From the NCBI GenBank assembly GCA_963764715.1, contig CAVXTP010000015.1:128001-192000 (forward strand): a DNA stretch of 64,000 nucleotides, in the 5' to 3' direction. How positions within the stretch are numbered: position 1 is the stretch's first letter; each line of letters begins with the position of its first letter. This stretch comes from an uncultured Acidobacteriota bacterium. GTDB taxonomy: Bacteria > Acidobacteriota > Thermoanaerobaculia > UBA5066 > Gp7-AA6. Positions 4,021 to 31,325 of this stretch are shown one piece after another. Both the position numbers and the translations under genes were made by a program. Under the pieces are notes generated by a model. The model had not been told where the DNA came from. It was given only the letters and a program-made list of their open reading frames with translations, and ran no database searches.

Positions 4021-4087
4021 CCTGGGGCCTGACCTGCATTTCTGAATCTTTCGAGTAAAGATTCAGTTATTCAGGGCTGACCCCAGG
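4021..4087. repeat. Imperfect inverted repeat, a diverged relative of the GGGGTCAG hairpin element; contains the stop of the amidohydrolase gene
   Basis: CCTGGGG...CCCCAGG ends around an inner perfect stem CTGAATCTTT/AAAGATTCAG. Confidence 0.6.
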
Positions 4088-6252
4088 AGGCGGGCGAGGG
4101 GCTTGCCGGAGGCGTCGAGGAGCTCGAGGGCGCCGGAGGCGATCCGCCAGCGGGCGGTCGAATGGAGGGCCTCGAGGAAGCGTCGTTCGAGGTCCATCGC
4201 CGGGCAGGCCATCTTCGTCGTCATCAGGGGACCGAACGCGAGCGCCTCGCCCGCGCGGGTGTACGCGCCGGAGACGCGGTTGCAGCCGGCCGAGCCCTGG
4301 ACCTTGCCGTCGGCCGTGAAGCGGAGCTCGATCGGGCGGCCGCCCGTGTCGGCCGGGACCGTTTCGCCCCCGAGGGCGGCGAGCTTCCACGCGCCGGCGG
4401 TCAGGGATGGATCGGCGGCCCTCGGGGGCGCGGCCGCCGGCTCCGCGACGACGACCGGCGACAGTCCCGCCGCCCTGCGCCACTCGACGAGGACCACGTG
4501 GAAGCGCTGCGGACGGTCTCCCGCGGGATCGATCCGGCCGCCCGGCATCAGGTACTCGAGCTCCGCCGGCTTCTCGCGCTTCGCCCACGCCTTGAATTCG
4601 TCGAAGCGGTCGCCCGGGACGACGGCGCCGCGGGGCTCGAAGAGGAAGCCCGAGATCTTCCCCGAGGCATCGAGCCACCACGTCGCCCGGAACTTCTGCG
4701 GCGACCGGTCGATGAGGCGGTAGAAGTCGTTCATCTCGACGCCCGCGGCCGTCACCGAGTCGCGGCCCTCGCGCCAGTCGGAGTACTCGTTCTGCGAGTG
4801 GAAGTACGAATCCCAGCCGCTCCACCGCCCACCGAGCGTCCAGGCCTCGCCGGGGCCCGCCTTCGCCTCCCACCAGATCCGCGCGTCCGGCGACATGAGC
4901 GCGCCGGCCGCCGCCTCGTCGCCCCGCTTTCTCGCCGCCAGAAACTCCTGCACCTTCGCGATCCCGAGCGCGTCCTTGAACACCACGCCGCCCTTCATGA
5001 CCCAGGCCACGCGCTCGAGCGTCGCGACGTCGACGAGCGGGTTGCCGCGCACCGCGATGATGTCGGCGAACCGGCCCGGCGCGATCGCGCCCACGCGGTC
5101 CGACCAGCCCAGCAGCTCGGCCGCGCCGACCGTCGCCGCGCGGATCGCCTCGAGCGGCGTCATCCCGTGCGAGGCCATCCAGACGATCTCTTTCGCGTTC
5201 TCACCCTGGGGGAGCACCGAAGCGTCGGACCCCATCGCGATCTTCACGCCCGCCGCAACGGCCTTCCGGAACCCCTCCTCGCTTCCCCGCCGGAACCGCT
5301 CCTGGCGCTCCCGCTGCCAGGCCGGAGCGTCCGGCGAAGGAGCCTCCTCCTCCATCTCCCAGATCGCGCCGGTCGGAACGAGAAAGACGCCCTTCTCCTT
5401 GAGCATCCGCACGCCCTCGTCGTCCAGGAGCGTGCCGTGCTCGACGGAATCGACGCCGGCGCGGATCGCCGTCTTGATCCCGTCGGTGCCGTGGGCGTGC
5501 GCGGCGACCTTCTTGCCGTAGCGGTGCGCCTCGTCCACGATCGCCGTCATCTCGTCGAGGGTGAACTGGGTCTCGCTCGCGACGTTCTTTCCCTCGCCGC
5601 CGCCCTCGGTCGCCATGATCTTGATGACGTCGGCGCCGTACTTGATCTCGTACCGCGTGAGCTTGCGCACGCCGTCGACGCCGTCCGCGATCCCCGATTC
5701 GCCGCCGACCTTGATCGTCGGGGAAAGTCCTTCGACGTCTTCGTTGTGCCCGCCGGTCGAGCCGATCGCCAGGGTCGCGACCAGCATCCGCGGGCCCGCG
5801 ACGTCGCCGCGGGCGATCGCGTCGCGCAGCGCCACGTCCGTGAAGTCCTTGGCCCAGAGGTCCCGGACGGTGGTGAAGCCGGCCTCGAGAGTCACCTTCG
5901 CGCGGGCGGACGAGGTCACCGCGTCCTGCATCGGGCCGCCCTCGAGCAGGTACTTGTAGGTCGTCGTGAGATGCGTATGACAGTCGATGAGGCCGGGAAG
6001 AATGGTGGCGTCGCCCAGGTCGAAGACCTCGGAGCCCGGCGGGATCGCGAGCCCGGGCCCGACCGCCGTGATCCTCTCGCCCTCGATCAGGACGACCGGG
6101 TTCTCGACGATGCGGCCCGCGACGACGTCGAGCATCGCCTTCGCGCGGACAGCCTTGCGGCTCGCGCGCGCCGCGGCGGGCGCGGCGCCGCCGAGGATCG
6201 CCGCCACGCCGACCGCAAAGACGGCCCGCGCCATCCGCCCCAGGACCGCCAC
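4063..6252 (-). CDS. Secreted amidohydrolase (Xaa-Pro dipeptidase-like) fused to NTF2-like and META domains
   Basis: Signal peptide; PGLIDCHTH, AAHAHG, SVEHG, MGSD; C-terminal GSAGCN...TKMAC META signature. Confidence 0.85.
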   Translation of the reverse strand: MAVLGRMARAVFAVGVAAILGGAAPAAARASRKAVRAKAMLDVVAGRIVENPVVLIEGERITAVGPGLAIPPGSEVFDLGDATILPGLIDCHTHLTTTYKYLLEGGPMQDAVTSSARAKVTLEAGFTTVRDLWAKDFTDVALRDAIARGDVAGPRMLVATLAIGSTGGHNEDVEGLSPTIKVGGESGIADGVDGVRKLTRYEIKYGADVIKIMATEGGGEGKNVASETQFTLDEMTAIVDEAHRYGKKVAAHAHGTDGIKTAIRAGVDSVEHGTLLDDEGVRMLKEKGVFLVPTGAIWEMEEEAPSPDAPAWQRERQERFRRGSEEGFRKAVAAGVKIAMGSDASVLPQGENAKEIVWMASHGMTPLEAIRAATVGAAELLGWSDRVGAIAPGRFADIIAVRGNPLVDVATLERVAWVMKGGVVFKDALGIAKVQEFLAARKRGDEAAAGALMSPDARIWWEAKAGPGEAWTLGGRWSGWDSYFHSQNEYSDWREGRDSVTAAGVEMNDFYRLIDRSPQKFRATWWLDASGKISGFLFEPRGAVVPGDRFDEFKAWAKREKPAELEYLMPGGRIDPAGDRPQRFHVVLVEWRRAAGLSPVVVAEPAAAPPRAADPSLTAGAWKLAALGGETVPADTGGRPIELRFTADGKVQGSAGCNRVSGAYTRAGEALAFGPLMTTKMACPAMDLERRFLEALHSTARWRIASGALELLDASGKPLARLLGSALNN

Positions 6253-6253
6253 C

Positions 6254-7165
6254 CTACTTCCCCAGGTACTGCTGCACGTTTTCCTTCGTGATCATCGCCG
6301 TCGGGAGAACGATCTTCTTCGGCACCTTCTCGCCCTTGAAGATCTTCTCGGCGACGTCGATGGCCTCCTTGCCGCCCGTCGGGTAGATGAACGTCGCCGA
6401 GAGCTTGCCGTCGGCGACGGCCTGCCGTCCGCCGTCGAGGCCCGGCAGCGCGTCGATGCCGACGAAGAGCATCTGGCCGTCGCGGCCCTTGGCCTTGGCC
6501 GCGAGGAACGCGCCCATGGCCATCGGATCGTTGTGCGCGTAGACGAGGTCGATCTTCTCGTGCGCCGAGAGCGCCGATTCCATCTGCGCCATCGCCTCCT
6601 CGCGCAGCCAGTTGGCGACGGGGTCGTGGACGATGTGGATGTCGGGGAACCCGGCGATCGCCTCGCGGAAGCCCTCGCTCCGGTCGCGGGCGGGCGGCGA
6701 TCCGGGAAGGCCCTTGATCTCGACCACGTCGCCCTTGCCCTTGAGGACCTTCGCGATGAACTCGCCGGCGGCCTTGCCGATCTCCCGGTTGTCGGCGCCG
6801 ATGAAGGTCGTGTAGGTGTCCCCCTCGATCGCGCGGTCGAGCACGATGACGGGAATGCCCTGCTCGTAGACCCGCCGGACGATCGGCGTCAGGGGCCTGG
6901 CCTCGTTCGGCGAGATGATCAGCAGGTCGATCTTCTGACGCAGGAAGTTCTCGACGTCGGCGACCTGCTTGGCGTTGTCCTGCTGCGCGTCGGCGTAGGC
7001 GACCTCGATGTCGGGAAAGCCCTTCGCCGCTGCCGCCACGTCCGCGTTCATGGAGACGCGCCAGGGCTCCCCCAGGTTGCACTGGGAGAAGCCGATGAGG
7101 TGCTTGCCGGACTTCGCCTTGCCGCAGCCGAGGGCGCCGAACGCGAGCGCGAAGAGGGCGGCCAC
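6254..7165 (-). CDS. Sugar ABC transporter substrate-binding lipoprotein (RbsB-like)
   Basis: IGFSQ, IPVIVLDR, FIGADN, YAHNDPMAMGA, GIDA; lipobox LGC. Start uncertain; nearest GTG is 7165. Confidence 0.85.
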   Translation of the reverse strand: MAALFALAFGALGCGKAKSGKHLIGFSQCNLGEPWRVSMNADVAAAAKGFPDIEVAYADAQQDNAKQVADVENFLRQKIDLLIISPNEARPLTPIVRRVYEQGIPVIVLDRAIEGDTYTTFIGADNREIGKAAGEFIAKVLKGKGDVVEIKGLPGSPPARDRSEGFREAIAGFPDIHIVHDPVANWLREEAMAQMESALSAHEKIDLVYAHNDPMAMGAFLAAKAKGRDGQMLFVGIDALPGLDGGRQAVADGKLSATFIYPTGGKEAIDVAEKIFKGEKVPKKIVLPTAMITKENVQQYLGK

Positions 7166-7215
7166 AAGGGCCGCCCCTACGACGGGAGCGTAGGGGCGGG
7201 GCTTGTCCCCGCCCT
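7155..7215. repeat. Inverted doublet of GTAG-family REP sequences
   Basis: CGTAGGGGCGGGGCTTGTCCCCGCCCT at 7189-7215 and the inverted variant CGTAGGGGCGGCCCTTGTGGCCGCCCT at 7181-7155. Confidence 0.8.
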
Positions 7216-7220
7216 TCCGG

Positions 7221-7378
7221 CTAGCGCTTCTTCCGCTGGAGCCAGACCGGGCACGGACGGGGGTCAGGTCTTCATTTTTCGGGCCCCGGCTCCGTCCGCG
7301 GCTCGAGTCTCCGTCTCCCGGGGCCTTCGAAAAATGAGAGACCTGACCCCTACCGCTTCTTCCGCTGGAGCCAGACCG
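7221..7378. repeat. 29-bp direct repeat (7221-7249 and 7350-7378) duplicating the 3' end of the ABC gene
   Basis: CTA[G/C]CGCTTCTTCCGCTGGAGCCAGACCG, 28/29 identical. Confidence 0.9.
7260..7350. mobile_element. Non-autonomous hairpin element (REPIN/MITE-like) with GGGGTCAGGTCTTCATTTTTCG terminal inverted repeats
   Basis: The same arms recur at 31333-31401 and 31977-32110; the right arm has a 1-nt insertion. Mobility is inferred. Confidence 0.65.
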
Positions 7379-9845
7379 CGCCGAGGATGATGACGCCCTT
7401 GAGGATGAGCTGCAGGTTCGCATCGACATTGTTCAACCCCATGATGTTGTTGATGACTCCGATGATCAGCACGCCGACGAGCGTACCGCCGACCGATCCG
7501 GTTCCCCCCGAGAGGCTCGTTCCGCCGATGACGACCGCGGCGATCGCGTCGAGCTCGTACGCGATCCCGTCGTTGGGATTGCCCTGCTCGAGCTGCGCGC
7601 AGTGGACGATGCCGGCCAGCGCCGCGAGCGTCGCGGCGATCACGTACACGCCGGCCTTGTGCCAGGCCACGCGGATCCCCGACAGCCGCGCCGCCGTTTC
7701 GTTGTCGCCGATCGCGTAGAGGTAGCGCCCGGCGCTCGTGCGCGTCAGGAAGACGTGCATGCCGGCGACCGTCAGCAGGAACAGGACCGCCGGCGCCGGC
7801 ACGAAGGGCAGGAGCGTCCCGGCGATCCGGTGGACCGACTCCGGCGCGCCGCCTTGCCCGAACCCGAGCGGGATCGCCATGCCGCCGCTGACGTACCGGG
7901 CGACGCCGCGCGCCGCGCTCATCGTCGCGAGCGTCGCGATGAAGGGCTGCAGCTTCCAGCGCGCGACGACGAAGCCGTTGATCGCTCCGCAGAGCGCGCC
8001 GACGGCGAGGACGGCGAGGGCCGCCGCTCCGAGGCCGAGGCCGGCCTTCATGAAGAGCCAGGCCGTCAGCGTCGCGGCGAGCGCGAGGACCGAGCCGACG
8101 GAGAGGTCGATGCCGCCCGAGATGACGACGGCGGTCATGCCGACGGCCAGGATCCCCTTCTCCGCGACCTGCCGGAGGATGTCGGTCAGGTTGCCGATGT
8201 CGAGAAACACCGGCCGCCCGCCCCGGACCGGCGAGAAGACGACGGAGAGGAGCAGCACCGCCGCGAGCCCGAAGAGCCCGGTGTACCGTCCGAGCCGGCG
8301 CCGGCCCCGCGCCGGGGGCCCGCCGGACGGCGGACCGCCCGATTCTTCGCGCCGCTCCGTCGCGGTCGTCCCGGCCGCCGCGGCGAGGACCCGCTCCTCG
8401 GTCGCCTCGGCGTGCGGCAGCTCCGCCGTCACGCGGCCCTCGCGGAAGACGAGCACCCGGTGGCACTGCGTCAGGATCTCCGACATCTCGGAGGAGCAGA
8501 GGATGATCCCGAAGCCCTGCGCCGCGAGCCGGCGCAGGAGCGCGTAGACCTCGGCCTTCGCCGCGAGGTCGATCCCCCGCGTCGGCTCGTCGAGCAGCAG
8601 GACCGACGGCGAGGCGAAGAGGCAGCGCGCGAGAATCGCCTTCTGCTGGTTGCCGCCCGAGAGCGTCGCGATCGGGACCTCCGGCGACGCGGCGCGCACC
8701 CCCGTGTCGCGCATGAGCGCGGCGCCGGTCGCGCGCGCGCGAGGCCGGTCGATCCAGCCGAAACGCGAGATCTTCGGCAGCGATCCGACGGTCACGTTCT
8801 CCGATACCGCGAGATCCGGGAAGATCGCCTGGGACTTGCGCTCCTCGGGCAGCAGCACGACGCCGGCCTCGCGCGCTTCGGCGGGCGAGGTGGGCCGGTA
8901 CTCCGACCCGCCGACGACCACGCGGCCCGACACGGGGCGCTCGAGCGCGCCCGTCAGCGCGAGCAACAGCTCCGTGCGGCCTGCCCCGATCAGGCCCGCG
9001 AGACCCAGGATCTCGCCCCGGCGCAGCGTCAGGGAGACGTTCGACAGCCGCCGGCCGCCCGGGCGCTCGGGGTCCTCGACCGACAGGTCCTCGACCCGGA
9101 GGACCTCCGGGGCGCCGGCCTCGAGCGGCGAGAGCTCCACGCGCTCGATGTTGCGGCCCACCATGAGGCGGACCATCTCGTCCTCGCCGACGCCCTCGGC
9201 CTCGCGCGTGACGATGCGCTTCCCGTCGCGCAGCACCGTGATCCGGTTCGCGAGCCGTTGCACCTCGTCGAGCTTGTGGGAGATGTAGACGATCGCGACC
9301 CCGCGCTCGGTCAGGCGGCGGATCAGGCGCTCGAGCCGGGCGGCCTCCGACGAGGAGAGGGACGTCGTCGGCTCGTCCATGATGATGAGCCGCGCGTCGA
9401 GCGAGAGGGCGCGCGCGATCGCGACGAGCTGCCGCTGTCCGGCCTCGAGGTGCCCCACCGTCTCGTCCGGCGCGACGTGCGTTTCGCCCAGGGCCTCGAG
9501 CGCCTTCGCGGCTCCCGGCAGCAGCGAGCGCGGCCGGCCGAGGAAGATGTTCTCGGCGACCGACAGCGACGACACGAGCTGCAGCTCCTGCGGGATCACC
9601 GCGATCCCCGCCTCGATCGCCTCGCGCGGGCTCTCCATCCGCCGCGGCGCGCCGTCGACGCGGACCTCTCCCGCGTAGCCCGAGATCTCGCCGGAGAGGA
9701 TCTTGATGAGCGTCGACTTCCCGGCGCCGTTTTCGCCGATCAGCGCGTGCACCTCCCCCGGCCGCACGTCGAAGTCGACCGCGTCGAGCGCGCGAACGCC
9801 CGGGAACTCCATCGACACGCCGCGGGCTTCGACGAGGGAGGTCAT
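7350..9845 (-). CDS. Sugar ABC transporter, fused RbsA-type ATPase and RbsC-type permease
   Basis: GENGAGKST, MDEPT, LSGGNQQK, LLLDEPTRG, then GGIDLSVGS and YELDAIAAVVIGG. ATG at 9845. Confidence 0.92.
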   Translation of the reverse strand: MTSLVEARGVSMEFPGVRALDAVDFDVRPGEVHALIGENGAGKSTLIKILSGEISGYAGEVRVDGAPRRMESPREAIEAGIAVIPQELQLVSSLSVAENIFLGRPRSLLPGAAKALEALGETHVAPDETVGHLEAGQRQLVAIARALSLDARLIIMDEPTTSLSSSEAARLERLIRRLTERGVAIVYISHKLDEVQRLANRITVLRDGKRIVTREAEGVGEDEMVRLMVGRNIERVELSPLEAGAPEVLRVEDLSVEDPERPGGRRLSNVSLTLRRGEILGLAGLIGAGRTELLLALTGALERPVSGRVVVGGSEYRPTSPAEAREAGVVLLPEERKSQAIFPDLAVSENVTVGSLPKISRFGWIDRPRARATGAALMRDTGVRAASPEVPIATLSGGNQQKAILARCLFASPSVLLLDEPTRGIDLAAKAEVYALLRRLAAQGFGIILCSSEMSEILTQCHRVLVFREGRVTAELPHAEATEERVLAAAAGTTATERREESGGPPSGGPPARGRRRLGRYTGLFGLAAVLLLSVVFSPVRGGRPVFLDIGNLTDILRQVAEKGILAVGMTAVVISGGIDLSVGSVLALAATLTAWLFMKAGLGLGAAALAVLAVGALCGAINGFVVARWKLQPFIATLATMSAARGVARYVSGGMAIPLGFGQGGAPESVHRIAGTLLPFVPAPAVLFLLTVAGMHVFLTRTSAGRYLYAIGDNETAARLSGIRVAWHKAGVYVIAATLAALAGIVHCAQLEQGNPNDGIAYELDAIAAVVIGGTSLSGGTGSVGGTLVGVLIIGVINNIMGLNNVDANLQLILKGVIILGAVWLQRKKR

Positions 9846-9873
9846 GGGCAAACGGGTTCCTGAGGGCTTCCGT

Positions 9874-9997
9874 CGTAGGGGCGGGGCTTGTCCCCGCCCT
9901 GATGAGCCGTGAGGGCGGCCACGAGCCGGCCAACGAAGGCAGGCCACCGGCGGTAGGCAACGCCGAGCGCAGCTCGGCGGTAACCCGCCCCTACGAC
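9874..9997. repeat. GTAG-family REP cluster
   Basis: 9874-9900 is identical to 7189-7215; the inverted partner (9912-9996) is interrupted by nested short hairpins. Confidence 0.75.
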
Positions 9998-10017
9998 CGG
10001 GCGCGCGGAACGGACTG

Positions 10018-11649
10018 TCATCCTCGCCCCTTCAGCCGCCGCATCAGATCCGTCTTGCGCCCGAAGTGGTCGTGCAGCTCCAGCCAATCCCGGTAGAGCG
10101 CGTCGTACGCATCGGCGGCCTCGGGTCGAGGCGTCACGCGCTCGGGCCTGAGGCGCGCCATGGCGCGCGCCGCGTCGGCGAAGGACCCGTGGCCGCCGTG
10201 CGCCGGCCCCGCCGCGACGGCCCCGAGCATGGCCGCCCCCAGCGCCGAGGCGTTCGCCGCGGCCGCGAGGCCGATCGGCCGCCGCGTCACGTTGGCGTAG
10301 ATCTGGAGGAGCAGGGGGCTCCTCTCGGCGAGGCCGCCCACCGCGATGAGCTCCGTTACCGGGATCTGCTTCTCGCCGAACGCGTCGAGGATCCGGCGCG
10401 TCGAGAACGCCGTCGCCTCGATCAGCGCCCGGTAGATGTCGCCCGCCGTCGTCGCGAGCGTCATGCCGACGAGAAGGCCCGTGAGGTTGGCGTCGACCAG
10501 GACCGAGCGGTTCCCGTTCCACCAGTCGAGCGCGAGCAGGCCGTGGCCGCCGGGCGGCGCCTCGGCGGCTTCCCGCTCGAGCGCCGCGAACCCGGCGCCG
10601 GTGCCGGCGACGAGCCTGGCGAACCAGCCGAAGATGTCGCCGACGGCCGGCTGCCCCGCCTCGTACCCCGAAAAGCCCTCGACGATGCCGTCGCGCACGA
10701 CGCCGCCCACGCCCTCGACGAGGGCGTGCCGGTCCGAGAGCAGCATGTGGCAGGTCGAGGTGCCCATGACCATGACCATCCGGCCGGTCTCGACGACCGT
10801 CGCCGCGGGGACCGCGCTGTGCGCGTCGATGATCGCCGCGGCGACCGCCGTTCCCGGCGCCAGGCCGAGCCGCGCGCCCATGGCCTCCGTCAGGCCGCCG
10901 ACGCGCCGCCCGGGCGGCACGATCTCGCCCGAGAGCTTCGAGGGCAGATCGCCGAAGCGCGGGTTCAGCGCCGCGAAGAACTCCGTCGACGGAAACCCGC
11001 GCTCGCGGCTCCAGAAGCCCTTGTAGCCGGCGCCGCAGGAGTTGCGCACGCGCGCGCCCGAGAGCTCGCCGACGACCCAGTCGCCGCCCTCGACGATCGC
11101 CGCCGCGGCGTCGTAGACCTGGGGATCCTCCTCGAGGACCTGGAGGGCCTTGGCGGCGAGCCACTCCGAGGAGCTCTTCCCGCCGTAGTCGGCGAGAAAC
11201 GCCTCGCCCCGCTTCTCGGCGAGCGCGTTGATCCGGTCGGCCTGGGGCTGCGCCGCGTGGTGCTTCCAGAGCTTGACCCACGCGTGCGGACGCGACGCCC
11301 ACGTCGGGAGCAGGCACAGCGGCCGCCCCGCGGCGTCGACCGGCAGCACGGTGCAGGAGGTGAAGTCGACGCCGATCCCGACGATGGATTCCTTCGCGAC
11401 GCCCGCCGCGGCGAGCGCCCGGGGCACGGCCTTCTCGATCGAGGCGATCCAGTCGCCCGGGTGCTGCAGCGCCCAGTCGGCTCCGAGGCGGACGCCCGAG
11501 TCCGGGAGCGCCGCGTCGATCACGCCGTGGGGATACTCCACGACGGCCGAGCCGCGTTCCTTCCCGGTGCGCGTCTCGACGACGACGGCGCGCACGGACG
11601 CCGTGCCGAAGTCGAGGCCGAGCGCGCAGGGCGGCTGCGGTGCCGTCAC
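10018..11649 (-). CDS. araB: Ribulokinase (FGGY family)
   Basis: GLDFGT, IGVDFTSCT, KLWKHHAAQPQA, MGTSTCH, LDWWNGNRS. GTG start overlaps the upstream TGA. Confidence 0.9.
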   Translation of the reverse strand: MTAPQPPCALGLDFGTASVRAVVVETRTGKERGSAVVEYPHGVIDAALPDSGVRLGADWALQHPGDWIASIEKAVPRALAAAGVAKESIVGIGVDFTSCTVLPVDAAGRPLCLLPTWASRPHAWVKLWKHHAAQPQADRINALAEKRGEAFLADYGGKSSSEWLAAKALQVLEEDPQVYDAAAAIVEGGDWVVGELSGARVRNSCGAGYKGFWSRERGFPSTEFFAALNPRFGDLPSKLSGEIVPPGRRVGGLTEAMGARLGLAPGTAVAAAIIDAHSAVPAATVVETGRMVMVMGTSTCHMLLSDRHALVEGVGGVVRDGIVEGFSGYEAGQPAVGDIFGWFARLVAGTGAGFAALEREAAEAPPGGHGLLALDWWNGNRSVLVDANLTGLLVGMTLATTAGDIYRALIEATAFSTRRILDAFGEKQIPVTELIAVGGLAERSPLLLQIYANVTRRPIGLAAAANASALGAAMLGAVAAGPAHGGHGSFADAARAMARLRPERVTPRPEAADAYDALYRDWLELHDHFGRKTDLMRRLKGRG

Positions 11650-13316
11650 GCCCGGTACTTCGCCGCCTGGTGCCGGTCGAGCGTCTGCTCGGGATCGCCG
11701 CACAGGTTGACCTGCATACCGAGCGCGCGGGCCATCGAGGCCTTGCGCACGAGCGCCCGGTTTGCCGTGGCCGCGTCCGGCGCGTATGCGACCTGGATGT
11801 GGTTGGCCATGTGCTTGGCCATCATCTGGTCGCGCGTGATCCCGTAGAGGACGGCGTGCATGATCGGCCACTGCGGCGTCGTCGCGTTCCACCGCCGCTG
11901 TGTCTCGGCATCCGACAGCTTCACGACGCCGCCCCGGCCGATGTCCATGTGGAGCGCGTGGTTCTTGACGTACACCCGCGAGAAGACGATCTCGCCCGGC
12001 TTCGAGACGCCCTTGAGGGTGGACCCGCCCTTCGGAAAGTACATGGGCGGCTGGCGTTCGCCCTTCGCCCCGGCGTATCCCCCGATGAAGTGCGAGGCCG
12101 GCGCGGCGCCCGAGATCTCGAAGACCCACACGTACGCGTTCACGCCGTTCTCCTCGACCGCCGCGCCCCAACGCACGTCGTGGAGCGTCGTCGAGGGATC
12201 GATGCCGAGGTCCGTCCAGACCCGGTTCGTCAGCAGCGCGTCGACCCCGGCGCACTCGTCGACCTCGTTGAAGTGCGGCACGGCGAGTCCGGAAAAGAGC
12301 GGCTTCCCGTCGGCGCCGGCGACCGGCGGCCGGTCGGGGTTGTTCAGCAGACCCTCCGCCAGGTCCGACGCGACGCACGTGTCCTTGAGTCCCTGCTGGT
12401 ACTGGATGCCGATCGCGGCGCAGCCGAAGTCGTGCGCCATGCGGACCGCGGCGTCGTACATCTTGAGGCCTTCGAGGACCTGCCCCTCGGTCAGCTCCGT
12501 CGACTCGTCCCGGCCGAGCGCGAACTTCATCCCGCGCGAGGTCAGCCACGCGTAGTGCCGCCGCGCAGCGTCGTCCGGCACCTCGCGCATCGCCGCGTAC
12601 AGCATCGACTGCGAGAGGCGCTCCTTGAAGAGCCCCATCGCGTGCATCAGGTCGTCGGGGACGATCGCGTTGTACATCCCCATGCAGCCCTCGTCGAAGA
12701 CGCCCAGGATCGCCTGGTCGCGCCTCAGTGCCTCGCCGAGCGCGGCGCCGCGGGCCCGGTCCTCGGCGTAGTTGCCGTTGAACGTCCGGTCCTCGATTGC
12801 CTGCGCGTGGCTGGTGTCGTGCGCGATCGCGCCCTGCGACAGCCACTGGCGCAGGGCCCCGCGCGCGAAGCCGTCCTCGAAGTCCTCGCTCCAGATCGAG
12901 CTGTACGGGATCCCCGCCTTCGTCAGCGAGGCGTTGACGTTCAGCATGCCGACGAGGCCCGGCCACTCTCCGCTCCAGTTGGCGAGCGTCAGGATCGGGC
13001 CCCGGTGCCTGGTGAGGCCGGCCAGGATGTGGCTCGTGTACTCCCAGACCGCCTCGGCCACGACGAGCGGGGCTTCGGGATCGATCTTGCGGAAGATCTG
13101 GATGCCGCGGGCCTGCCCGTCGATGAAGCCGTGCTTCTTCTCGGGATCGTACGCATGGCCGCGCGTGATCCGCGCGCCGAGCTCGCCGAAGGCCTTGTCC
13201 ACGGCCTTCTCGAGGGTCTGCTGCGCCGGCCAGCATCTCTGGTTGGCCGAGATCCGCGAGTCGCCGCTCGCGACGAGGACGACCTCCTTTGCTCCGGGCT
13301 TGACGGATGTGCTCAT
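11646..13316 (-). CDS. L-fucose/D-arabinose isomerase (FucI) family protein
   Basis: GIQYQ, NEVD...LHDVRW (catalytic Glu/Asp region), TPQWP, ANHIQVAY (metal His). ATG 13316 with GGAGA RBS. Confidence 0.75.
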   Translation of the reverse strand: MSTSVKPGAKEVVLVASGDSRISANQRCWPAQQTLEKAVDKAFGELGARITRGHAYDPEKKHGFIDGQARGIQIFRKIDPEAPLVVAEAVWEYTSHILAGLTRHRGPILTLANWSGEWPGLVGMLNVNASLTKAGIPYSSIWSEDFEDGFARGALRQWLSQGAIAHDTSHAQAIEDRTFNGNYAEDRARGAALGEALRRDQAILGVFDEGCMGMYNAIVPDDLMHAMGLFKERLSQSMLYAAMREVPDDAARRHYAWLTSRGMKFALGRDESTELTEGQVLEGLKMYDAAVRMAHDFGCAAIGIQYQQGLKDTCVASDLAEGLLNNPDRPPVAGADGKPLFSGLAVPHFNEVDECAGVDALLTNRVWTDLGIDPSTTLHDVRWGAAVEENGVNAYVWVFEISGAAPASHFIGGYAGAKGERQPPMYFPKGGSTLKGVSKPGEIVFSRVYVKNHALHMDIGRGGVVKLSDAETQRRWNATTPQWPIMHAVLYGITRDQMMAKHMANHIQVAYAPDAATANRALVRKASMARALGMQVNLCGDPEQTLDRHQAAKYRA

Positions 13317-13333
13317 GGACGCGTTCTCCCCCT

Positions 13334-15163
13334 TCAGGTTTGGAGGTCGAAGTACATGTTGTACGGCATGTCGGGTCCGATCTTGTAGAACGGAAGGAAG
13401 AGCCCTTCCGGCTGTCCGGGCGCGGCGAATTCGAGTCCCGGGCGGCCGACCATCCACTCCGTCGGCCCGCCCTGGACCTTCAGCCGGGGCGTCTCGTCGC
13501 GCACGAGCACGACCGGGCCGTACGTGACGGCGACGCGCTTCGGGTGCTGCGCGTCGATCGGCGAGAGCGCCAGCCGCATCGGCAGGCGCACCGTCACACG
13601 GTCGCCCGCGCTCCAGGTCCGGCGGAGGACAGCCCACGTCCCGGGCCGCGCGTCGACCGGGTACGCCTTCCCGTTGACCGCGACCTCGACGCCCTGCGTC
13701 CAGGCCGGCACCCGGAACTTCAGGTCGAACGCGGCGCTCTTGCCGGGCCGCACCGTCAGCGTCGTCGCGTCGGCGTCCGGGAACGCCGTCTCCTGTTCGA
13801 CCGAGACGAGCGTGCCGCCCTGGTTCCACGCCGCGCGCGAGGGGACGAAGAGGTTGACGAGAAGGCCGCCCGCGTCCCGGAAGTAGACGACGTTGTGGTA
13901 GTCGGCGAGGACCTGCGGGTAGGTGCCCGAGCAGCACGGCCAGTTGCCGTCGGGGTGGTAGAACTTGCGCCCGCCCCCCATCCGGTAGTCGGAGTAGTAG
14001 AACGTCGCGCCCTTCGGCCCCATCGGGAGGGCGCCGAGCATTCCGTTGTAGAGGAGCTTCTCGATCCAGTCGCCGTAGCGCGCCTGCCCGGTGTACGCCA
14101 GCAGGTAGCGGGCGAGCTTGAACCCGCCCCAGGAGCCGCAGGTCGTCTCGAAGGAGTAGGAGGTCGTCTCGAGCCGGCGGCCGAGCTCGCCGTCCTCCGG
14201 GACGAGGTCTTCTTCGGGGCCGTATCCCCCGGTCGCGTAGCACTGCGTCTGCTGGAGCCAGTCGTACTCGTTGACGATCGCGTCGAGGTACGGCCGCTCG
14301 CCCGTCACGGCGTAGGTCATCGCGCACGACGACATCGTGTTGACGTGGCTGTAGGCGTGGTGGCCGTGTTTCTTGACGTCCGTCGGCGCCGCGCCCGAGA
14401 ACGCGTTCCAGTAGGCGTCGAACCGCCAGAGATCGCCGAACCGGCGGTACTTCTCGTCGCCGGTGACCTGGTACGCGCGGTAGAGGTTCTCCGAGAGCGT
14501 GTACCACTCGGTGTCGGAGTCGAGCTTGCGGCTGCGGTCGAGGTTCTCGATCGCCCAGTCCGTGATCTTCGAGAGGTGCGTCAGGGCGTCCCGGCGGCCG
14601 GCGTAGACCGCCATGTCGACGAGGCCGCCGACCTGCTTGTCGTAGATGTAGTGCGGCTGCCAGGGGCGGCGCGAGTAGAAGAACCAGCCGTCGGGCTCGA
14701 TCGTCGAGGCCCACTCCCCCATCAGGAAGATCGCCTTCGAGCGCATCTCGGCGTCGCCGGTCGCCTTCGACATCCGGGCCATCCCCGAGAGCCACTGGCC
14801 GAAGGTGTTGAAGGTGTCGCCGTTGGACCACCAGAAGCGCCGGTTGGGCTCGCCGCTGTACCAGCCGCCCAGGTCCTGGCCGCGCGCCCGCTGGCCCGCG
14901 CGCATGCGGAAGCCCTTGAGGATGTCGTCGTCGGGGATCGCGTAGTAGTAGGCGCGCATCGTGTCGAACTGCGCCTTCATCGGGCCGGGCAGGAGGGAGA
15001 CGCCCTCGTAGTCGAAGGCCTCGAGGAAGGTCTTCGGCCCGGCCGCCGCGGGAGACGTGGGCGACGCGACGCCGAGGGCGGAAAGCCTCGAGCCCAGCGG
15101 CGCGGCCGTCGCGCCCAGGAGCGCTTTCGTCACGAACTCCCGCCGGCTGGTCCCGTGGCTCAT
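13334..15163 (-). CDS. GH127 glycoside hydrolase (beta-L-arabinofuranosidase family), Tat-exported
   Basis: Tat motif SRREFV; YATGG, ETTC, EKLLYN, WPCCSGT, LKFRVPAW, VTYGPVVL. Confidence 0.85.
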   Translation of the reverse strand: MSHGTSRREFVTKALLGATAAPLGSRLSALGVASPTSPAAAGPKTFLEAFDYEGVSLLPGPMKAQFDTMRAYYYAIPDDDILKGFRMRAGQRARGQDLGGWYSGEPNRRFWWSNGDTFNTFGQWLSGMARMSKATGDAEMRSKAIFLMGEWASTIEPDGWFFYSRRPWQPHYIYDKQVGGLVDMAVYAGRRDALTHLSKITDWAIENLDRSRKLDSDTEWYTLSENLYRAYQVTGDEKYRRFGDLWRFDAYWNAFSGAAPTDVKKHGHHAYSHVNTMSSCAMTYAVTGERPYLDAIVNEYDWLQQTQCYATGGYGPEEDLVPEDGELGRRLETTSYSFETTCGSWGGFKLARYLLAYTGQARYGDWIEKLLYNGMLGALPMGPKGATFYYSDYRMGGGRKFYHPDGNWPCCSGTYPQVLADYHNVVYFRDAGGLLVNLFVPSRAAWNQGGTLVSVEQETAFPDADATTLTVRPGKSAAFDLKFRVPAWTQGVEVAVNGKAYPVDARPGTWAVLRRTWSAGDRVTVRLPMRLALSPIDAQHPKRVAVTYGPVVLVRDETPRLKVQGGPTEWMVGRPGLEFAAPGQPEGLFLPFYKIGPDMPYNMYFDLQT

Positions 15164-15828
15164 CGTGCCTCCCGCGTCGAGTGCCGGAATTCTACGTCGT
15201 CTGATCCGCCGATCTCCGGCCGGGTGCGGACGACGCCGATCCAGAGGATGGCGAGGAGGAGGACGAGCAGGTGGGCCGCCTCGAAGGAGTCCGAGGCGGG
15301 GTCGCCGTTTCTCGCGTGGGTCGCGATCGCGCCCACCATGACGAGCGCGAGGCCCGCCGCCGCCACCAGCCGCACGCCCGGCGCGAGCAGAGCGAACGCG
15401 CCGAGCGTCTCGAAGGCGATGACGGCGTAGAGGAACCAGACCGGGAAGCCCGAGGCCGTGAAGAAGGCCCGCATCTCGGCGTCGTGGGCGAGCTTGCCGA
15501 GCTCCGTGGCGAGGAAGGCGAGCGCGACCGAGACGCAGAGGCCGCGAATGAGAAACGGCGAGGCCGCGAAGGCGAGGCCCGCGCCGCGCGTCGCCCCGGG
15601 GGCCTTCGGCCGCGCCACCGCCCGTCCCAGGACGACCGACGCCGCGAGGGCCGCCGCGAGGACGAGGCCGAACCGGAAGATCGCCGCGCGGAAGAGCCCG
15701 GCGTAGGCGCCCCGGATCGGGACGAGCCCGAGCATCGACAGGACCGTCGCCGCGAGCACCGCCGCGCCGGCCGCGACACAGAATCCGTAGAAGACGCGCG
15801 CCAGCCGCTCGCCGCCGGCCGGGGTCAT
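15160..15828 (-). CDS. DoxX-family membrane protein
   Basis: Multi-TM; FETLGAFALL and MVGAIATH. ATGA overlaps at both ends. Confidence 0.75.
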   Translation of the reverse strand: MTPAGGERLARVFYGFCVAAGAAVLAATVLSMLGLVPIRGAYAGLFRAAIFRFGLVLAAALAASVVLGRAVARPKAPGATRGAGLAFAASPFLIRGLCVSVALAFLATELGKLAHDAEMRAFFTASGFPVWFLYAVIAFETLGAFALLAPGVRLVAAAGLALVMVGAIATHARNGDPASDSFEAAHLLVLLLAILWIGVVRTRPEIGGSDDVEFRHSTREAR

Positions 15829-17849
15829 TTCCCTTCGATCTGCCGGATCGCGACCTCGGCCGCGTACGACGGCGACCGGTCGATCACCCCGCCGACGTTC
15901 GAGATCTTCCGGGCCGCGATCTGCCGGAGCACCGGGAGCGCCGGCTTCGCCGCCGGGCCGATCGCGCCGAGCGCCTCCGCGCACGCCCGCAGGACGTTCA
16001 CGTTCTCGTCCGCCACACCCGCGGCCGCGACGAGCGCGGGCACCGCAGGCGCCGCCTTCGGGCCGATCGCGGCGAGCGCCTCGGCCGCCGCCATCCGCAC
16101 GACGCGGTCGGAATCCTTCAGCCGCGCCGCGAGGGCGTCGACCGCCGGGGCCGCCGCGGCGCCCATCTTCCCCAGCTCGCGCGCGGCGAGCCCCCGCACG
16201 ACCGGGTCGGGGTCCGAGAGGGCCCGCGTCGCGCCGGCGAGGTCCGTCGGGACCTCCGGCGGCTTCACGGCCGCCGCCTTCGCCCAGCCCTTCGCCCCGA
16301 CCTCGGCGAGGACGATGTTGTCGACGCCGAGCACGTAGCCCGTCGAGGCCGCGTTCCTGCCGATGCAGACGTAGGTCAGCGTGTGCCGCCCCTTCGTCAG
16401 CCGCGGCCAGCCGACCTGGTAGTCCATGCCGACGTAGATCTCGTAGGCGTAGCCGTCGAAGGAGAGCTGCGGCCGGACGTCCGCGCCCGGCTCGTGCTCG
16501 AGGACCGGAGCGACCGGCGGCTTGCCGTCGAGGAGCACGGTGTAGATCCCGTAGTCCGAGCCCTGCGCGACCTGCGTGTAGAGCTCGTAGTCGCCCGACT
16601 CCGGGACCTCGAACGGGATCTCGAGCTTCGAGCCCGGGCCCTCGCCCTTGAAGATGAGGACGTCTTTGGACCAGAAGAGGTCCGGAAAGACCTCGGCCGT
16701 GCCCTTCTCCGTCTTCACCTGTCCGGCCGCCGTCTCGACCTCGAACTGGATGGCGTTGCCCTGCGGGAGCCGCGCCGACCCGTACGGCACGGGCCAGAGC
16801 CCCGTCGCGACGCCGTCCTGGTACCAGTAGGCGACCGACGACATCAGGTCGTCGCGCGTGCCGTAGGGCGACTTGAGCGAGCCATCGTTGTTGAAGGTCC
16901 AGCCCAGGTGCTCGAGGTCGAACCGGAAGGAGGTCTTGAACGGGATCGGGTCCTTGACGTGCCACCGGTATCCCGTCATGCGGGAGCCGAGGCCCGTCCC
17001 GTCGGCGACCGTGACGCCGGTGTACGGCCCGTCGACCACGTGGAGGCCCCAGGCGTCGTTGAAGTAGTCCTCCGAGCCCGTCCCGACGATCGACGGCTCC
17101 TTCTCGCCGTCGACGGTGATGCGCTCGTCGCCCTCGCCGAACCAGCCGGCCTCGGGCTGGATCACGTTGAGCACGGTTCCGGCGTAGAACCCGCGGCCCT
17201 TCACGTCGAGGAACGTGTAGACCTTTTTCTCTGCCGGCGCCGGGAGCTCCTGCTTGTACCGCGCGTGGAAATAGAGGGTGTCGGGCGGAAGGGCCGGGAC
17301 CTTCGACCAGTCGACGTGGTAGTAGACGTGGTCGACTCCGCGCCGGCCCTCGTTCGTCAGCGTGATGCGGCAGGACTTCGCGAACGGCATCGGCCAGTAG
17401 CTGTTGCGGGCCCGCCCGTCGGAGCTCGCGCGGATCATCTCCGACTTGACCCAGCGCTCGAACCCGTGGCCGACGGCGAAGAAGTCGCCGACCGGCGCAT
17501 CGACCGACGGCTCCGCGTTCCCGTCGTAGTAGACCCGCAGGCGCATCAGGCGCGGCCAGGCGTATTCGTTGGCCGCGATCGTCAGCCAGATGTGCGTCAC
17601 GACGCCCGGACCCTTCAGGTCCGCGAGCGTCAGCGTCTCGCCGGGGATGGGGTGTTTGCTGTCGTTGTTGGAGTCGGGGTTCGGGCTCGAGGAGGAGACG
17701 CGCTCGGCCTTCGCATCCTTCATCTGGGCGAAGCGCAGCGCGTCGAGCGGCGGAAGCGGGGCCGTTTGCGCGCGTGCCGGCGCGGGAGCGAGACCGGAAG
17801 CCAGCACCGCGGCGAGGCCCAGCACGGACGTCTGGAGAACGGTCCTCAT
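15825..17849 (-). CDS. Secreted GH172 (DUF2961) glycoside hydrolase with a beta-sandwich domain and C-terminal HEAT repeats
   Basis: GPGVVTHIW, PSVDAPVGDFF, NSYWPMPF, WFGEGDE, GTGSEDYF, YRWH; HEAT units DPVVRGLAARELG and DRVVRMAAAEAL. Confidence 0.88.
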   Translation of the reverse strand: MRTVLQTSVLGLAAVLASGLAPAPARAQTAPLPPLDALRFAQMKDAKAERVSSSSPNPDSNNDSKHPIPGETLTLADLKGPGVVTHIWLTIAANEYAWPRLMRLRVYYDGNAEPSVDAPVGDFFAVGHGFERWVKSEMIRASSDGRARNSYWPMPFAKSCRITLTNEGRRGVDHVYYHVDWSKVPALPPDTLYFHARYKQELPAPAEKKVYTFLDVKGRGFYAGTVLNVIQPEAGWFGEGDERITVDGEKEPSIVGTGSEDYFNDAWGLHVVDGPYTGVTVADGTGLGSRMTGYRWHVKDPIPFKTSFRFDLEHLGWTFNNDGSLKSPYGTRDDLMSSVAYWYQDGVATGLWPVPYGSARLPQGNAIQFEVETAAGQVKTEKGTAEVFPDLFWSKDVLIFKGEGPGSKLEIPFEVPESGDYELYTQVAQGSDYGIYTVLLDGKPPVAPVLEHEPGADVRPQLSFDGYAYEIYVGMDYQVGWPRLTKGRHTLTYVCIGRNAASTGYVLGVDNIVLAEVGAKGWAKAAAVKPPEVPTDLAGATRALSDPDPVVRGLAARELGKMGAAAAPAVDALAARLKDSDRVVRMAAAEALAAIGPKAAPAVPALVAAAGVADENVNVLRACAEALGAIGPAAKPALPVLRQIAARKISNVGGVIDRSPSYAAEVAIRQIEGK

Positions 17850-17895
17850 CGAGTCCCCCCTCTCACCCTTCCGATAGAACCAGCGAAGCGGGGGG

Positions 17896-17901
17896 ATTCT
17901 A
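17896..17901 (-). promoter_or_regulatory. Putative -10 box (TAGAAT) for the sugar operon
   Basis: GCTAGAAT about 47 nt upstream of ATG 17849; no clear -35. Confidence 0.45.
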
Positions 17902-17918
17902 GCGTGGCGGCCGGATCT

Positions 17919-19436: not shown

Positions 19437-19446
19437 TTCGCGTCCT

Positions 19447-20360: not shown

Positions 20361-20362
20361 CG

Positions 20363-20431
20363 CTATTTCCCCCGGGACCCGGCGGACGCCGGAACGTTCG
20401 CTTCCGTCTTCTTCGTCTTCAGCTCCGCCAT
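20363..20431 (-). pseudogene. 22-aa remnant resembling the N-terminus of a DUF1801 protein
   Basis: RBS GGGAGAG followed by MAELKTKKTEANV...; TAG stop 2 nt before the RidA ATG. Confidence 0.5.
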
Positions 20432-20447
20432 CGGCGCTCTCCCGGCC

Positions 20448-29393: not shown

Positions 29394-30079
29394 CTTTCGT
29401 CTCCGGCGGCGGCCAGCCGGTTGATGTCGGCCGGCCCCAGGATCTTCTTCGCGTCGCCGCGCTCCGCGAGCGCGATCATCGCGCGTCCGACGGCGACGGT
29501 CGTCGTGATCCGGCGCGGGAAGAGCCGGCGCAGCAGCGGAAGCAGCGGGCCGAGCGCGACGTAGAACGCGCGGTAGAGCGGCGTGCGCGACCGGACGCCC
29601 CGCATCGGCTCGATGAAGCCCGGGCGAAACATGTATGCCCCGCCGATCGGCAGCGCGAGAAGCGCGTTTTCCGTCCGTCCCTTGACGCGCGCCCACATGA
29701 CGCGGCCGCGCTCGGTCGAGTCGGTCCCCGCGCCGGAGACGTAGACGAAGACGAGGTGCGGGCTCGCCGCCGCGAGCGCCCGCGCGGCCGCGAGCGTCAG
29801 GTCGAAGGTGCGCCGCGTGTACTCGGCCTCCGAGAGCCCGGCGGCCGAGACTCCGAGGCAGAAGAAGCACGCGTCGAGTCCCCGGAAGCGCGGCGCGAGC
29901 GCCGCGTAGTCGAAGAAGTCTTCGCGGAGGACTTCGGTCAGCTTCGGGTGCGAGACGCCGCACGGCCGGCGGCCGACGGCGAGGACCGACTCGACCCGCG
30001 GATCGTCGATGCACTCGAGGAGCACGCCCCCGCCGACCATGCCGCTCGCCCCGAAGAGGACGACCTTCACGGCGCGCAA
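29390..30079 (-). CDS. NAD(P)-binding Rossmann protein (atypical SDR/epimerase-like)
   Basis: FGASGMVG, FFCLG, WARVKG, FRPG. Start may be GTG 30070. Confidence 0.88.
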   Translation of the reverse strand: MRAVKVVLFGASGMVGGGVLLECIDDPRVESVLAVGRRPCGVSHPKLTEVLREDFFDYAALAPRFRGLDACFFCLGVSAAGLSEAEYTRRTFDLTLAAARALAAASPHLVFVYVSGAGTDSTERGRVMWARVKGRTENALLALPIGGAYMFRPGFIEPMRGVRSRTPLYRAFYVALGPLLPLLRRLFPRRITTTVAVGRAMIALAERGDAKKILGPADINRLAAAGDER

Positions 30080-30151
30080 CGTATCACCGGCGGGCGCCCG
30101 GGAAGTTTGGCGCTACACTCCCGCGCCAGACAACCCGGACAAGGAGGAGAC

Positions 30152-31325
30152 ATGCCGAGGCTCCCCCGCGCTGCCGTCTTCGCCGCCCTCGCGGCTTGCG
30201 CCATGGCCGCCGCCGCCCCGCTCTTCGCCCAGCAGCCCCCGCCGACGCCCTTCAACGGCATCACGACCGGGGTCGGCGATCTGCCGCGCCTCTCGAAGGC
30301 GAAGACGCGGTCGATCTCGCCGGAGAACTTCACCGGGGAGAAGGGCAAGGGCGGCATGGCCACCGAGGGCACCGGGAAGACCGACGCGAAGGACCTCGGC
30401 GTCGGGTGGAAGATCTCCCCCTCCGTCGTCATCAAGCCCGGCCAGGTCTTCACGCTCGCCGACATCGCGGGCTCGGGCGCGATCCAGCACATCTGGATGA
30501 CGCCGACCGGAACGTGGCGCTACTCGATCCTCCGGATGTACTGGGACGGCGAGACGACGCCCTCCGTCGAGGTACCGGTCGGCGACTTCTTCGCCTCGGC
30601 CTGGCAGCGCTACGCCCAGATCTCCTCGCTCGCCGTCGCGGTCAATCCCGGCAGCGCCTTCAACAGCTACTGGGTCATGCCCTTCCGCAAGGGTGCGCGC
30701 ATCACGATGGAGAACATCGGCGAGAAGGAGATGACGCTCTACTACCAGGTCACCTACGCGCTGACCGACATCGCCGGACGACGCGGCCTACTTCCACGCC
30801 CAGTTCCGCCGGGTCAATCCCCTCCCGTATAAGGACGTCTACACGCTCGTCGACGGCATCAAGGGCCAGGGCCACTACGTCGGGACTTACATGGCGTACG
30901 GCGTGCACAACAACGGCTGGTGGGGCGAGGGCGAGATCAAGTTCTACATGGACGGCGACACCGACTTCGCGACGATCGTCGGCACCGGGACCGAGGACTA
31001 TTTCTGCGGCTCCTACAACTTCGAGAACAGGGCGACGAAGCAGTACCAGGAGTTCACGACGCCCTATTCCGGCATGCCCCTCGTCGTGCGGCCCGACGGC
31101 CTGTACCAGTCGCAGCAGCGCTTCAGTCTCTATCGCTGGCACATCACCGACCCCATCCGCTTCGAGAAGGACCTGCGCGTCACGATCCAGGCCCTCGGCT
31201 GGCGCTCGGGCGACCGGTACCTTCCGCTCCAGGACGACATCGCGTCGGTCGTCTACTGGTACCAGCGCGAGCCGCACGCGCCGTTCCCGAAGCTGCCGGC
31301 CAAGGATTACCTCGAGATCCAGTAG
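30152..31325 (+). pseudogene. Secreted GH172 (DUF2961) glycoside hydrolase with a +1 frameshift near 30773 (possibly a sequencing error)
   Basis: AAGGAGG RBS, signal peptide, SISPENFTGEKG; after the shift WWGEGE, GTGTEDYF, YRWHITDP. Confidence 0.8.

Follow-up and report, generated by a model that had tools for sequence, protein, structure and literature searches.

The DNA analysed here, 64,000 nucleotides of an uncultured Acidobacteriota bacterium (contig CAVXTP010000015.1, positions 128,001-192,000; about 71% G+C) and called the window below, carries on its minus strand, at positions 6254-17849, a row of seven genes that probably form an operon for scavenging of D-arabinofuranosides and catabolism of D-arabinose. 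In transcription order they code for a GH172 glycoside hydrolase with HEAT repeats, a DoxX-family membrane protein, a GH127/GH146-like hydrolase, an aldose-ketose isomerase, a ribulokinase, a fused ABC importer and a sugar-binding protein (Table 1). D-arabinose is a rare sugar, the mirror image of the plant one, and its polymer D-arabinan typifies the cell walls of mycobacteria and corynebacteria. To our knowledge, enzymes degrading D-arabinan became known only in 2023, from a gut Bacteroidota and from a Microbacterium.

An earlier note, made from the sequence of the window, had named these genes and described them as one coupled unit. The genes and their common strand and span are borne out by Pfam and NCBIfam matches and by the GC3 frame plot (G+C by codon position), in which minus-strand coding runs unbroken from about 4060 to 19400. 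The first five genes, from GH172 to the kinase, are tightly coupled: ATGA overlaps lie at 15828 (GH172/DoxX) and 15163 (DoxX/GH127-like), the spacer between the GH127-like gene and the isomerase gene is 17 nt long and contains a GAAGGGGGAG ribosome-binding site, and a GTGA overlap at 11649 places the GTG start of the kinase on the stop of the isomerase. The description as a single unit fits these five genes, but the transporter genes follow only after gaps of about 172 nt (kinase to ABC) and about 184 nt (ABC to binding protein). The unit contains no regulator gene, and a scan of 5500-20500 gave neither an Rfam family (E up to 0.1) nor any convincing sign of a promoter or terminator. The homologues of 85-95% identity belong to metagenome-assembled genomes that carry the label Thermoanaerobaculia or Acidobacteriota.

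Table 1. Genes of the locus in transcription order, followed by other features of the window
Feature	Positions	Strand	Matches
GH172 (DUF2961) + HEAT, 674 aa	15825..17849	-	PF11175 E 4e-75; HEAT_2 E 3e-18
DoxX-family membrane protein, 222 aa	15160..15828	-	DoxX_2 E 1.6e-14
GH127/GH146-like cysteine glycosidase, 609 aa	13334..15163	-	PF07944 E 1.7e-36; PF20736 E 6.4e-26
FucI/AraA-superfamily aldose-ketose isomerase, 556 aa	11646..13316	-	weak Pfam Fucose_iso matches
AraB-type ribulokinase, 543 aa	10018..11649	-	NF003154; TIGR01234
CUT2-type ABC importer, two ATPase domains fused to permease	7350..9845 (ATG) or 9947 (GTG)	-	ABC_tran; BPD_transp_2
Periplasmic sugar-binding lipoprotein	6254..7165, open reading frame open up to 7429	-	Peripla_BP_4 E 1.7e-56
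505-aa protein with one N-terminal membrane helix	17919..19436	-	
Amidohydrolase fused to META domain, 729 aa	4063..6252	-	
Second DUF2961 gene, in two pieces	29756..31325	+	

Proteins encoded by the locus

The first enzyme of the row is a candidate exo-alpha-D-arabinofuranosidase. Its PF11175 score is 252.8 bits (cut-off 27), and its sequence matches in PDB are 4kq7 (E 1.4e-49), DgGH172c 8ah3 (2.3e-46), ExoMA1 8ic8 (4.4e-41) and alphaFFase1 7v1v (1e-38). DgGH172c and ExoMA1 are exo-alpha-D-arabinofuranosidases and alphaFFase1 is an alpha-D-fructofuranosidase. The stretches WFGEGDE and GTGSEDYF align with their counterparts in 8ah3, 8ic8 and 7v1v (GEG[DEN] and GTG[ST]ED), motifs that presumably hold the catalytic glutamates. 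A Sec-type signal at the N-terminus (read by eye) is followed by a middle domain, and HEAT repeats make up the C-terminal part. The DoxX gene is seen together with the GH172 gene in relatives. Further DUF2961 genes exist in the genome. The one at 29756-31325 of the window, with TAA and TGA stops inside the match, is either a pseudogene or an assembly error; two intact GH172-HEAT paralogues of the same architecture (G000:C14:215921-217903 and G000:C22:462200-464194) have unrelated surroundings, namely a peptidase M14 gene in one case and aconitase and haem genes in the other. Within the genus, 21 of 25 genomes have DUF2961; outside it, 1/16 does.

The third protein had been called GH127 in the earlier note. 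The domain scores (PF07944 126.5 bits, PF20736 90.8 bits) and the (alpha/alpha)6 fold uphold the relationship, but the protein is nearer to family GH146 than to GH127. Its sequence matches in PDB are the GH146 enzyme BT0349 (5opj, E 2.4e-33) and the GH127 enzyme HypBA1 (E 9e-7), and the AlphaFold 2 (AF2) model, with pLDDT 74.8, has its best Foldseek match in the same GH146 structure 5opj (TM 0.76, 21-22% identity), as against TM 0.65 for GH127; identity to solved structures spans 14-22%. The C-terminal domain of GH127 (PF20737), present in canonical GH127 genes of two other loci (L119 and L218), gives no match at E 0.001. The motifs GPxE, FE[TC]xCG and CCSGT are kept in 42 sequences of the clade, down to 40% identity, and the two cysteines of WPCCSG and the glutamate of GPEED align with solved enzymes. 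In HypBA1 the cysteine pair and a Glu-x-Cys motif provide the zinc and nucleophile residues, and a glutamate the acid/base. Throughout the 42 clade members the second metal motif, FETTC (FE-T-x-C), has one residue more than E-x-C. A twin-arginine signal, SRREF, was read by eye.

For the isomerase, which the earlier note had placed in the FucI family, the FucI/AraA superfamily fold is supported, yet the protein is a distant relative. Pfam matches are borderline (Fucose_iso_C 30.9 bits against a cut-off of 29.3; Fucose_iso_N1 25.9 bits, below its cut-off of 28), and there is no NCBIfam family match and no single-sequence match in PDB. A profile of 23 homologues matches in PDB only the D-arabinose isomerase 3a9r (E 1.9e-5). 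Foldseek with the AF2 model (pLDDT 94.3) places FucI/D-arabinose isomerase first (E about 5e-22, probability 1.00, 15-17% identity) and AraA second (E about 5e-17). Alignment to E. coli FucI by hhalign (probability 54.5%, E 1.2e-4) brings Glu in FNE, Asp in HDVR and His in ANH onto E337, D361 and H528 of FucI, its metal and catalytic residues. These fold and residue matches at 15-17% identity, together with borderline family hits, identify the protein as a third branch of the FucI/AraA superfamily, one with no characterised member. The branch is large: a word-index search gave at least 8000 proteins, and an exhaustive search 335 cluster representatives at E up to 1e-30. Abstracts of the literature since 2015 on D-arabinose catabolism, D-arabinose isomerase and D-ribulokinase yielded nothing on this branch.

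The kinase passes the NCBI ribulokinase models (NF003154, 659.8 bits against a cut-off of 428; TIGR01234, 633.5 against 583.25), and with 608 bits to the solved Bacillus ribulokinase 3qdk it appears about as close to that enzyme as an orthologue would be. As close homologues of the isomerase bear the public name "fucose isomerase" and the kinase passes an NCBI ribulokinase model, the remark of the earlier note that automated annotation would likely call this an L-arabinose operon is a fair one. In a quick tree with rows chosen by linkage, the kinase falls into a well-supported clade of 11 isomerase-linked kinases, outside of which stand E. coli AraB and all 6 AraD-linked kinases. The fused importer matches ABC_tran in two stretches (E 4.6e-53) and BPD_transp_2 (E 2.8e-46), and no sugar-specific NCBIfam model reaches its cut-off on it. 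The binding protein, with a lipobox GALGC read by eye, has its best PDB match in 2x7x, the domain with which BT1754 senses fructose; this match reaches 270 bits, with identity in about 132 of 275 aligned columns, compared with 189 bits for ribose-binding protein and 145 bits for YtfQ. The periplasmic domain of BT1754 senses fructose according to the available part of its report (PMC3404733). Fructofuranose, the ligand of BT1754, shares the D-arabino ring configuration, and the binding protein is likely a furanose binder, judging from its sequence relatives.

Two neighbours were seen on the same strand. The 505-aa protein belongs to no Pfam or NCBIfam family, gives only a weak AsmA lead and was not counted into the system; its gene stops 69 nt short of the GH172 start, and relatives also keep it upstream of GH172. 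Directly downstream of the binding-protein gene lies that of the 729-aa amidohydrolase, which resembles Xaa-Pro dipeptidases (429 bits, below the cut-off of 500) and has no evident link to the sugar genes.

Genome-wide evidence on the arabinose enantiomer

An AraB-type kinase acting on L-ribulose needs the 4-epimerase AraD, and D-ribulose 5-phosphate enters the pentose phosphate pathway without a 4-epimerase. The presence of AraA and AraD was therefore followed through the genome of the window (G000, 96.8% complete). AraA_N has no match in it and no gene passes the AraD models: the lone class II aldolase-like gene reaches 85 bits with the family that fits it best, where the cut-off is 200, and no epimerase model gives it more than 47 bits. 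What the earlier note had reported for the locus, that araA and araD are missing, thus extends to the whole genome. A ribulose-phosphate 3-epimerase is present. Neither a FucA-like aldolase nor the alternative 473-aa isomerase described below was found in G000, and there is no match to GH116 (PF04685) or to the endo-enzyme family GH183/DUF4185 (PF13810), for which the earlier note had suggested a search; the same DUF4185 model matches in another genome (G043), so the search can detect the family. Among the 41 genomes of the order, AraD above cut-off and AraA_N were each found in none. With no AraD found, L-ribulose 5-phosphate would be left without an exit, whereas D-ribulose 5-phosphate needs none.

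Within the genome collection 597 of 599 candidate stretches for the isomerase were confirmed. In the order, the isomerase occurs in 17/41 genomes, all 17 being among the 25 genomes of the window's genus; one of the 17 genes is broken (G003:C4:321231-322750, with TGA stops and matches in several frames). An orthologue of the GH127-like protein (at least 72% identity) accompanies it in 13 of these 17 genomes and is found in 0/8 of the isomerase-negative genomes of the genus. A distant paralogue (30-33% identity) occurs elsewhere, including 7/7 genomes of a sister family, a count that includes the unpublished G030.

A sample of 30 isomerase-bearing genomes from other lineages served as a refutation test. 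AraD passes its cut-off in 11 of them and AraA_N matches in 2, so that it became possible that the 556-aa family was itself the L-arabinose isomerase. However, no homologue of the 556-aa isomerase occurs in any of the 11 fetched AraD regions (tblastn, E 1e-6). Instead, four of nine Pfam-scanned AraD regions (L214, L215, L218, L219) have, next to AraD and an FGGY kinase, another isomerase, which is 473-493 aa long and matches Fucose_iso_C strongly. A search with the isomerase of about 473 aa found it in 3/5 of the remaining genomes, twice within an AraD-kinase cluster (G053:C465:10810-12207 and G041:C67:9026-10417 are further sites beside AraD). Altogether it is present in seven of nine AraD-positive, AraA_N-negative genomes, in six of them in the AraD region; it was not found in G057 and G069. 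This 473-493 aa protein, which does not belong to the 556-aa family, probably serves as an alternative L-arabinose isomerase, and on the evidence of these AraD regions the candidacy of the 556-aa family as a displaced L-arabinose isomerase was rejected.

Sister loci and the substrate of the operon

Contigs were surveyed with the isomerase, the GH127-like protein, GH116 and the binding protein as queries, and each survey comprises the best 80 loci. A module of isomerase, ABC importer and binding protein, 63-76% identical to that of the window, stands together with GH172 and a GH116 protein similar to ExoMA2 in Gemmatimonadota and in other Acidobacteriota. The clearest case, L012 from Gemmatimonadales, has the order GH116 - isomerase (73%) - ABC (69%) - binding protein (76%) - GH172. 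Its GH116 scores 347 bits with the exo-beta-D-arabinofuranosidase ExoMA2 and 29 bits with beta-glucosidases. The same genome also has a cluster of AraD, kinase and the 473-aa isomerase, and the two systems thus coexist there. Among the 80 binding-protein loci, 41 have the isomerase (at least 40% identity), 33 GH172, 8 an ExoMA2-like GH116 and 14 a GH127-like gene; at least one of the three hydrolases is present in 34/41 of the isomerase loci, and GH172 in 7/8 of the GH116 loci.

Where the orthologue of the GH127-like gene reaches at least 71% identity, the isomerase lies directly downstream in 18 of 19 loci (the exception is a 2.9-kb contig), and GH172 is found upstream in 11. At least five of the 19 loci have a flank long enough and no GH172 (L097, L098, L105, L106, L114), so the GH127-like enzyme would be the operon's sole hydrolase there; conversely, one relative (L011) has GH172 and no GH127-like gene. 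One and the same slot in front of the isomerase is filled by the GH127-like gene in some loci and by the ExoMA2-like GH116 in others, and the two occur together in 0/80 of the binding-protein loci. Because it takes the GH116 slot and never co-occurs with GH116, the GH127-like enzyme may be a D-arabinofuranosidase, a tentative assignment that we hold with rather less than even confidence. The slot pattern fits a swap of one exo-enzyme for another, which is not proof of it.

In some relatives a stretch of about 2 kb separates the GH127-like gene from the isomerase. It was considered as the missing epimerase and dismissed, as it encodes a peptidase S9 with PD40 repeats (L093:11850-13911; the same position in L094-L096, L101, L102, L104, L109 and L123). 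A different GH127 clade, 22% identical to the protein of the window, adjoins an ExoMA2-like GH116 and GH172 in L074 and is near GH116 in 3/80 of the GH116 loci (L151, L197, L202).

We propose the following pathway. D-arabinose would be released outside the cytoplasm by two exported enzymes, the Sec-type GH172-HEAT protein and the Tat-type GH127/GH146-like enzyme, the export routes being those suggested by the signals read by eye. The lipoprotein related to the BT1754 sensor would capture the sugar, probably in its furanose form, and the fused ATPase-permease would bring it in. In the cytoplasm the 556-aa isomerase would turn D-arabinose into D-ribulose and the AraB-type kinase would phosphorylate this to D-ribulose 5-phosphate, these being the reactions we infer for the two proteins; the product would join the pentose phosphate pathway with no 4-epimerase. 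Mycobacterial arabinan is only one option among the source glycans. Support for D-arabinose as the substrate, the view already taken in the earlier note, comes from comparison and not from biochemistry, and the genomic tests that were run all point to D-arabinose and away from L-arabinose.

Several observations weigh against this interpretation. Among the 80 loci retrieved with the isomerase, GH172 is present in 6 and GH116 in 4, and most isomerase homologues of about 60% identity lie in unrelated or uninformative surroundings; the scarcity of both hydrolases there means that the isomerase family may have a wider or different substrate range. Similarly, GH172 is near in 15 of the 80 GH116 loci and the isomerase in one, that of L012, so that GH116 loci are as a rule without this isomerase. 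As to the hydrolase, its orthologues of 40-58% identity share the motifs and sit in mixed glycan loci without the isomerase (their neighbourhoods, being heterogeneous, were set aside as a clue to substrate, as none emerged clearly); the characterised GH127 and GH146 enzymes named in our searches act on beta-L-arabinofuranosides or other L-configured sugars, and the literature search found no paper pairing a D-arabinofuranosidase with GH127 or GH146. The kinase passes curated models built on L-ribulokinase, and the characterised protein to which the binding protein is most closely related binds fructose and not arabinose. With no GH183 in the genome, attack on polymeric arabinan is not explained. 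Finally, L218 from Ignavibacteriota (G042:C3:1198000-1217000) has the order FGGY kinase - AraD - GH172 - 492-aa isomerase - GH127 - GH127, and GH172 within this apparent L-arabinose cluster is not accounted for by current GH172 specificities.

Three other explanations have to be weighed. The locus could be an L-arabinose operon, in which the GH127-like enzyme frees L-arabinose from beta-L-arabinofuranosides, the 556-aa protein acts as an L-arabinose isomerase of non-orthologous origin and AraB yields L-ribulose 5-phosphate. The GH127/GH146 fold with its kept cysteine and glutamate motifs, the passing of ribulokinase equivalog models by the kinase and the position of distant GH127-like orthologues near the plant-glycan enzymes GH51, GH31, GH36 and GH42 would all agree with that. 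It is nevertheless improbable, as L-ribulose 5-phosphate would be a dead end in an order with AraD in 0/41 genomes (the only class II aldolase-like gene of the window's own genome is unrelated), this isomerase is never present in the 11 AraD regions that were fetched, where AraD-bearing genomes tend to keep the other one, sister loci combine GH172 with a GH116 of exo-beta-D-arabinofuranosidase type, and the binding protein resembles a fructofuranose binder. Little more credit can be given to a mixed locus, whose core would serve D-arabinose and whose GH127-like enzyme, an ordinary beta-L-arabinofuranosidase or a hydrolase of some other L-configured sugar, would do no more than clear a decoration from the substrate glycan, with a product not catabolised here. 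The L-configured substrates of GH127/GH146 precedents speak for it, as do identical active-site motifs in the 40-58% orthologues lacking an isomerase nearby and the different GH127 clade beside GH116 and GH172 mentioned above; we consider it unlikely in view of the at least five loci in which the order GH127-like - isomerase - kinase - ABC - binding protein includes no second hydrolase, the 17 nt between hydrolase and isomerase, and the finding that the GH127-like gene and the GH116 that it would replace share none of the 80 binding-protein loci.

A locus for D-fructofuranosides, such as difructose dianhydrides, with GH172 acting as an alpha-D-fructofuranosidase and the importer carrying fructose, would draw on the presence of alphaFFase1 in family GH172, on the fructose-sensor domain of BT1754 as closest relative of the binding protein and on one homologue of 52% identity that adjoins a PfkB kinase (L284). 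It would leave the isomerase and the ribulokinase without a role, the operon has no fructokinase, and the ExoMA2-like GH116 of sister loci does not suit it; we regard it as very improbable. Catabolism of scavenged D-arabinose stays our preferred interpretation of the operon as a whole.

If so, the locus and its relatives suggest a compact module for scavenging of D-arabinose in abundant uncultured soil phyla, with three uncharacterised parts: an isomerase family annotated as "fucose isomerase", a furanose-type binding protein and the GH127/GH146-like hydrolase. A more specific version would have the hydrolase as a D-arabinofuranosidase, most simply an exo-beta-D enzyme replacing GH116, and the 556-aa protein as the founder of a D-arabinose-specific branch of the FucI/AraA superfamily widespread in soil phyla (Acidobacteriota, Gemmatimonadota, Verrucomicrobiota and Planctomycetota); this we put forward as a possibility, short of an even chance. 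Were it true, a change to mirror-image specificity would have occurred within a clan of cysteine glycosidases so far known for L-configured furanosides, and D-arabinose of actinobacterial cell walls would be a common source of carbon in soil. A hydrolase cutting D-arabinofuranosides would be a new tool for arabinogalactan and lipoarabinomannan and a new specificity in a mechanistically unusual clan. The locus also illustrates how family names such as ribulokinase, fucose isomerase and beta-L-arabinofuranosidase, when used for annotation, may suggest the wrong enantiomer.

Comparison with known systems

E. coli uses D-arabinose through the enzymes of fucose catabolism or, in strain B, with a D-ribulokinase. 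The proposed pathway is like this route in that a FucI-type isomerase would make D-ribulose, which a kinase would phosphorylate, and unlike it in that the kinase is AraB-type and the genome has no FucA-like aldolase; from a kinase of this type a 5-phosphate is the expected product, and no aldolase is therefore needed. With araBAD of E. coli K-12 the locus shares a kinase that is homologous to AraB and passes the NCBI ribulokinase models, but it lacks AraA and AraD, and the quick tree leaves the kinase outside the clade of E. coli AraB. Compared with the beta-L-arabinofuranosidases BT0349 (GH146) and HypBA1 (GH127), the hydrolase of the window has the same fold, Cys-Cys motif and upstream glutamate; it differs by its 14-22% identity to solved structures, by FE-T-x-C in place of E-x-C, by the missing PF20737 match and by an operon context that points to D- and not L-arabinose.

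Closer counterparts are the two known D-arabinan loci, which are compared here as given in the available parts of their reports; none of the best 80 loci of any survey comes from Dysgonomonas gadei or Microbacterium. PUL42 of D. gadei comprises three GH172 genes, GH183, GH116 and a fucose isomerase, and the predicted fucose isomerase was the most abundant carbohydrate-active protein on D-arabinan (PMC10115798). The table of the D-arabinan proteome includes a FucI of 591 aa and a "ribulokinase" of 560 aa (HMPREF9455_02482), for each of which the whole intensity falls into one of two columns (PMC10115798 supplement). The locus of the window resembles this system, as far as the available part goes, in joining GH172 with an isomerase of the FucI superfamily and a "ribulokinase". 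The D. gadei isomerase, however, has the canonical FucI length of 591 aa, whereas that of the window has 556 aa and 15-17% identity to FucI structures, and the window's locus has no SusC/SusD system, GH183 or GH116.

The locus of Microbacterium arabinogalactanolyticum holds four GH183 genes (including EndoMA1/2), the GH172 ExoMA1, the GH116 ExoMA2, an ABC transporter, an isomerase and a kinase, the last two being proposed to lead to D-ribulose 5-phosphate (PMC10509167). Judged by what the available part of that report contains, the two loci are alike in GH172, in an isomerase and kinase directed toward D-ribulose 5-phosphate, in an ABC importer and in the pairing of two exo-enzymes. They differ in that neither GH183 nor GH116, whose subfamily 4 supplies the exo-beta-D-arabinofuranosidase of the known loci, was found here, the GH127/GH146-like gene standing in the place that GH116 has in sister loci. 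Both hydrolases of the window have export signals (read by eye), whereas the Microbacterium exo-enzymes are described without them in the part available, and the importer is a CUT2 monosaccharide system with Peripla_BP_4 rather than an oligosaccharide system with SBP_bac_8 (PMC10509167). In its working, then, the locus resembles known D-arabinan loci, and the combination of GH172, isomerase and kinase has been known since 2023; it is set apart from them by five differences, namely the lack of an endo-enzyme, two hydrolases with export signals, a monosaccharide-type importer whose binding protein is of furanose type, an isomerase from a distant branch and a GH127/GH146-like enzyme in place of GH116.

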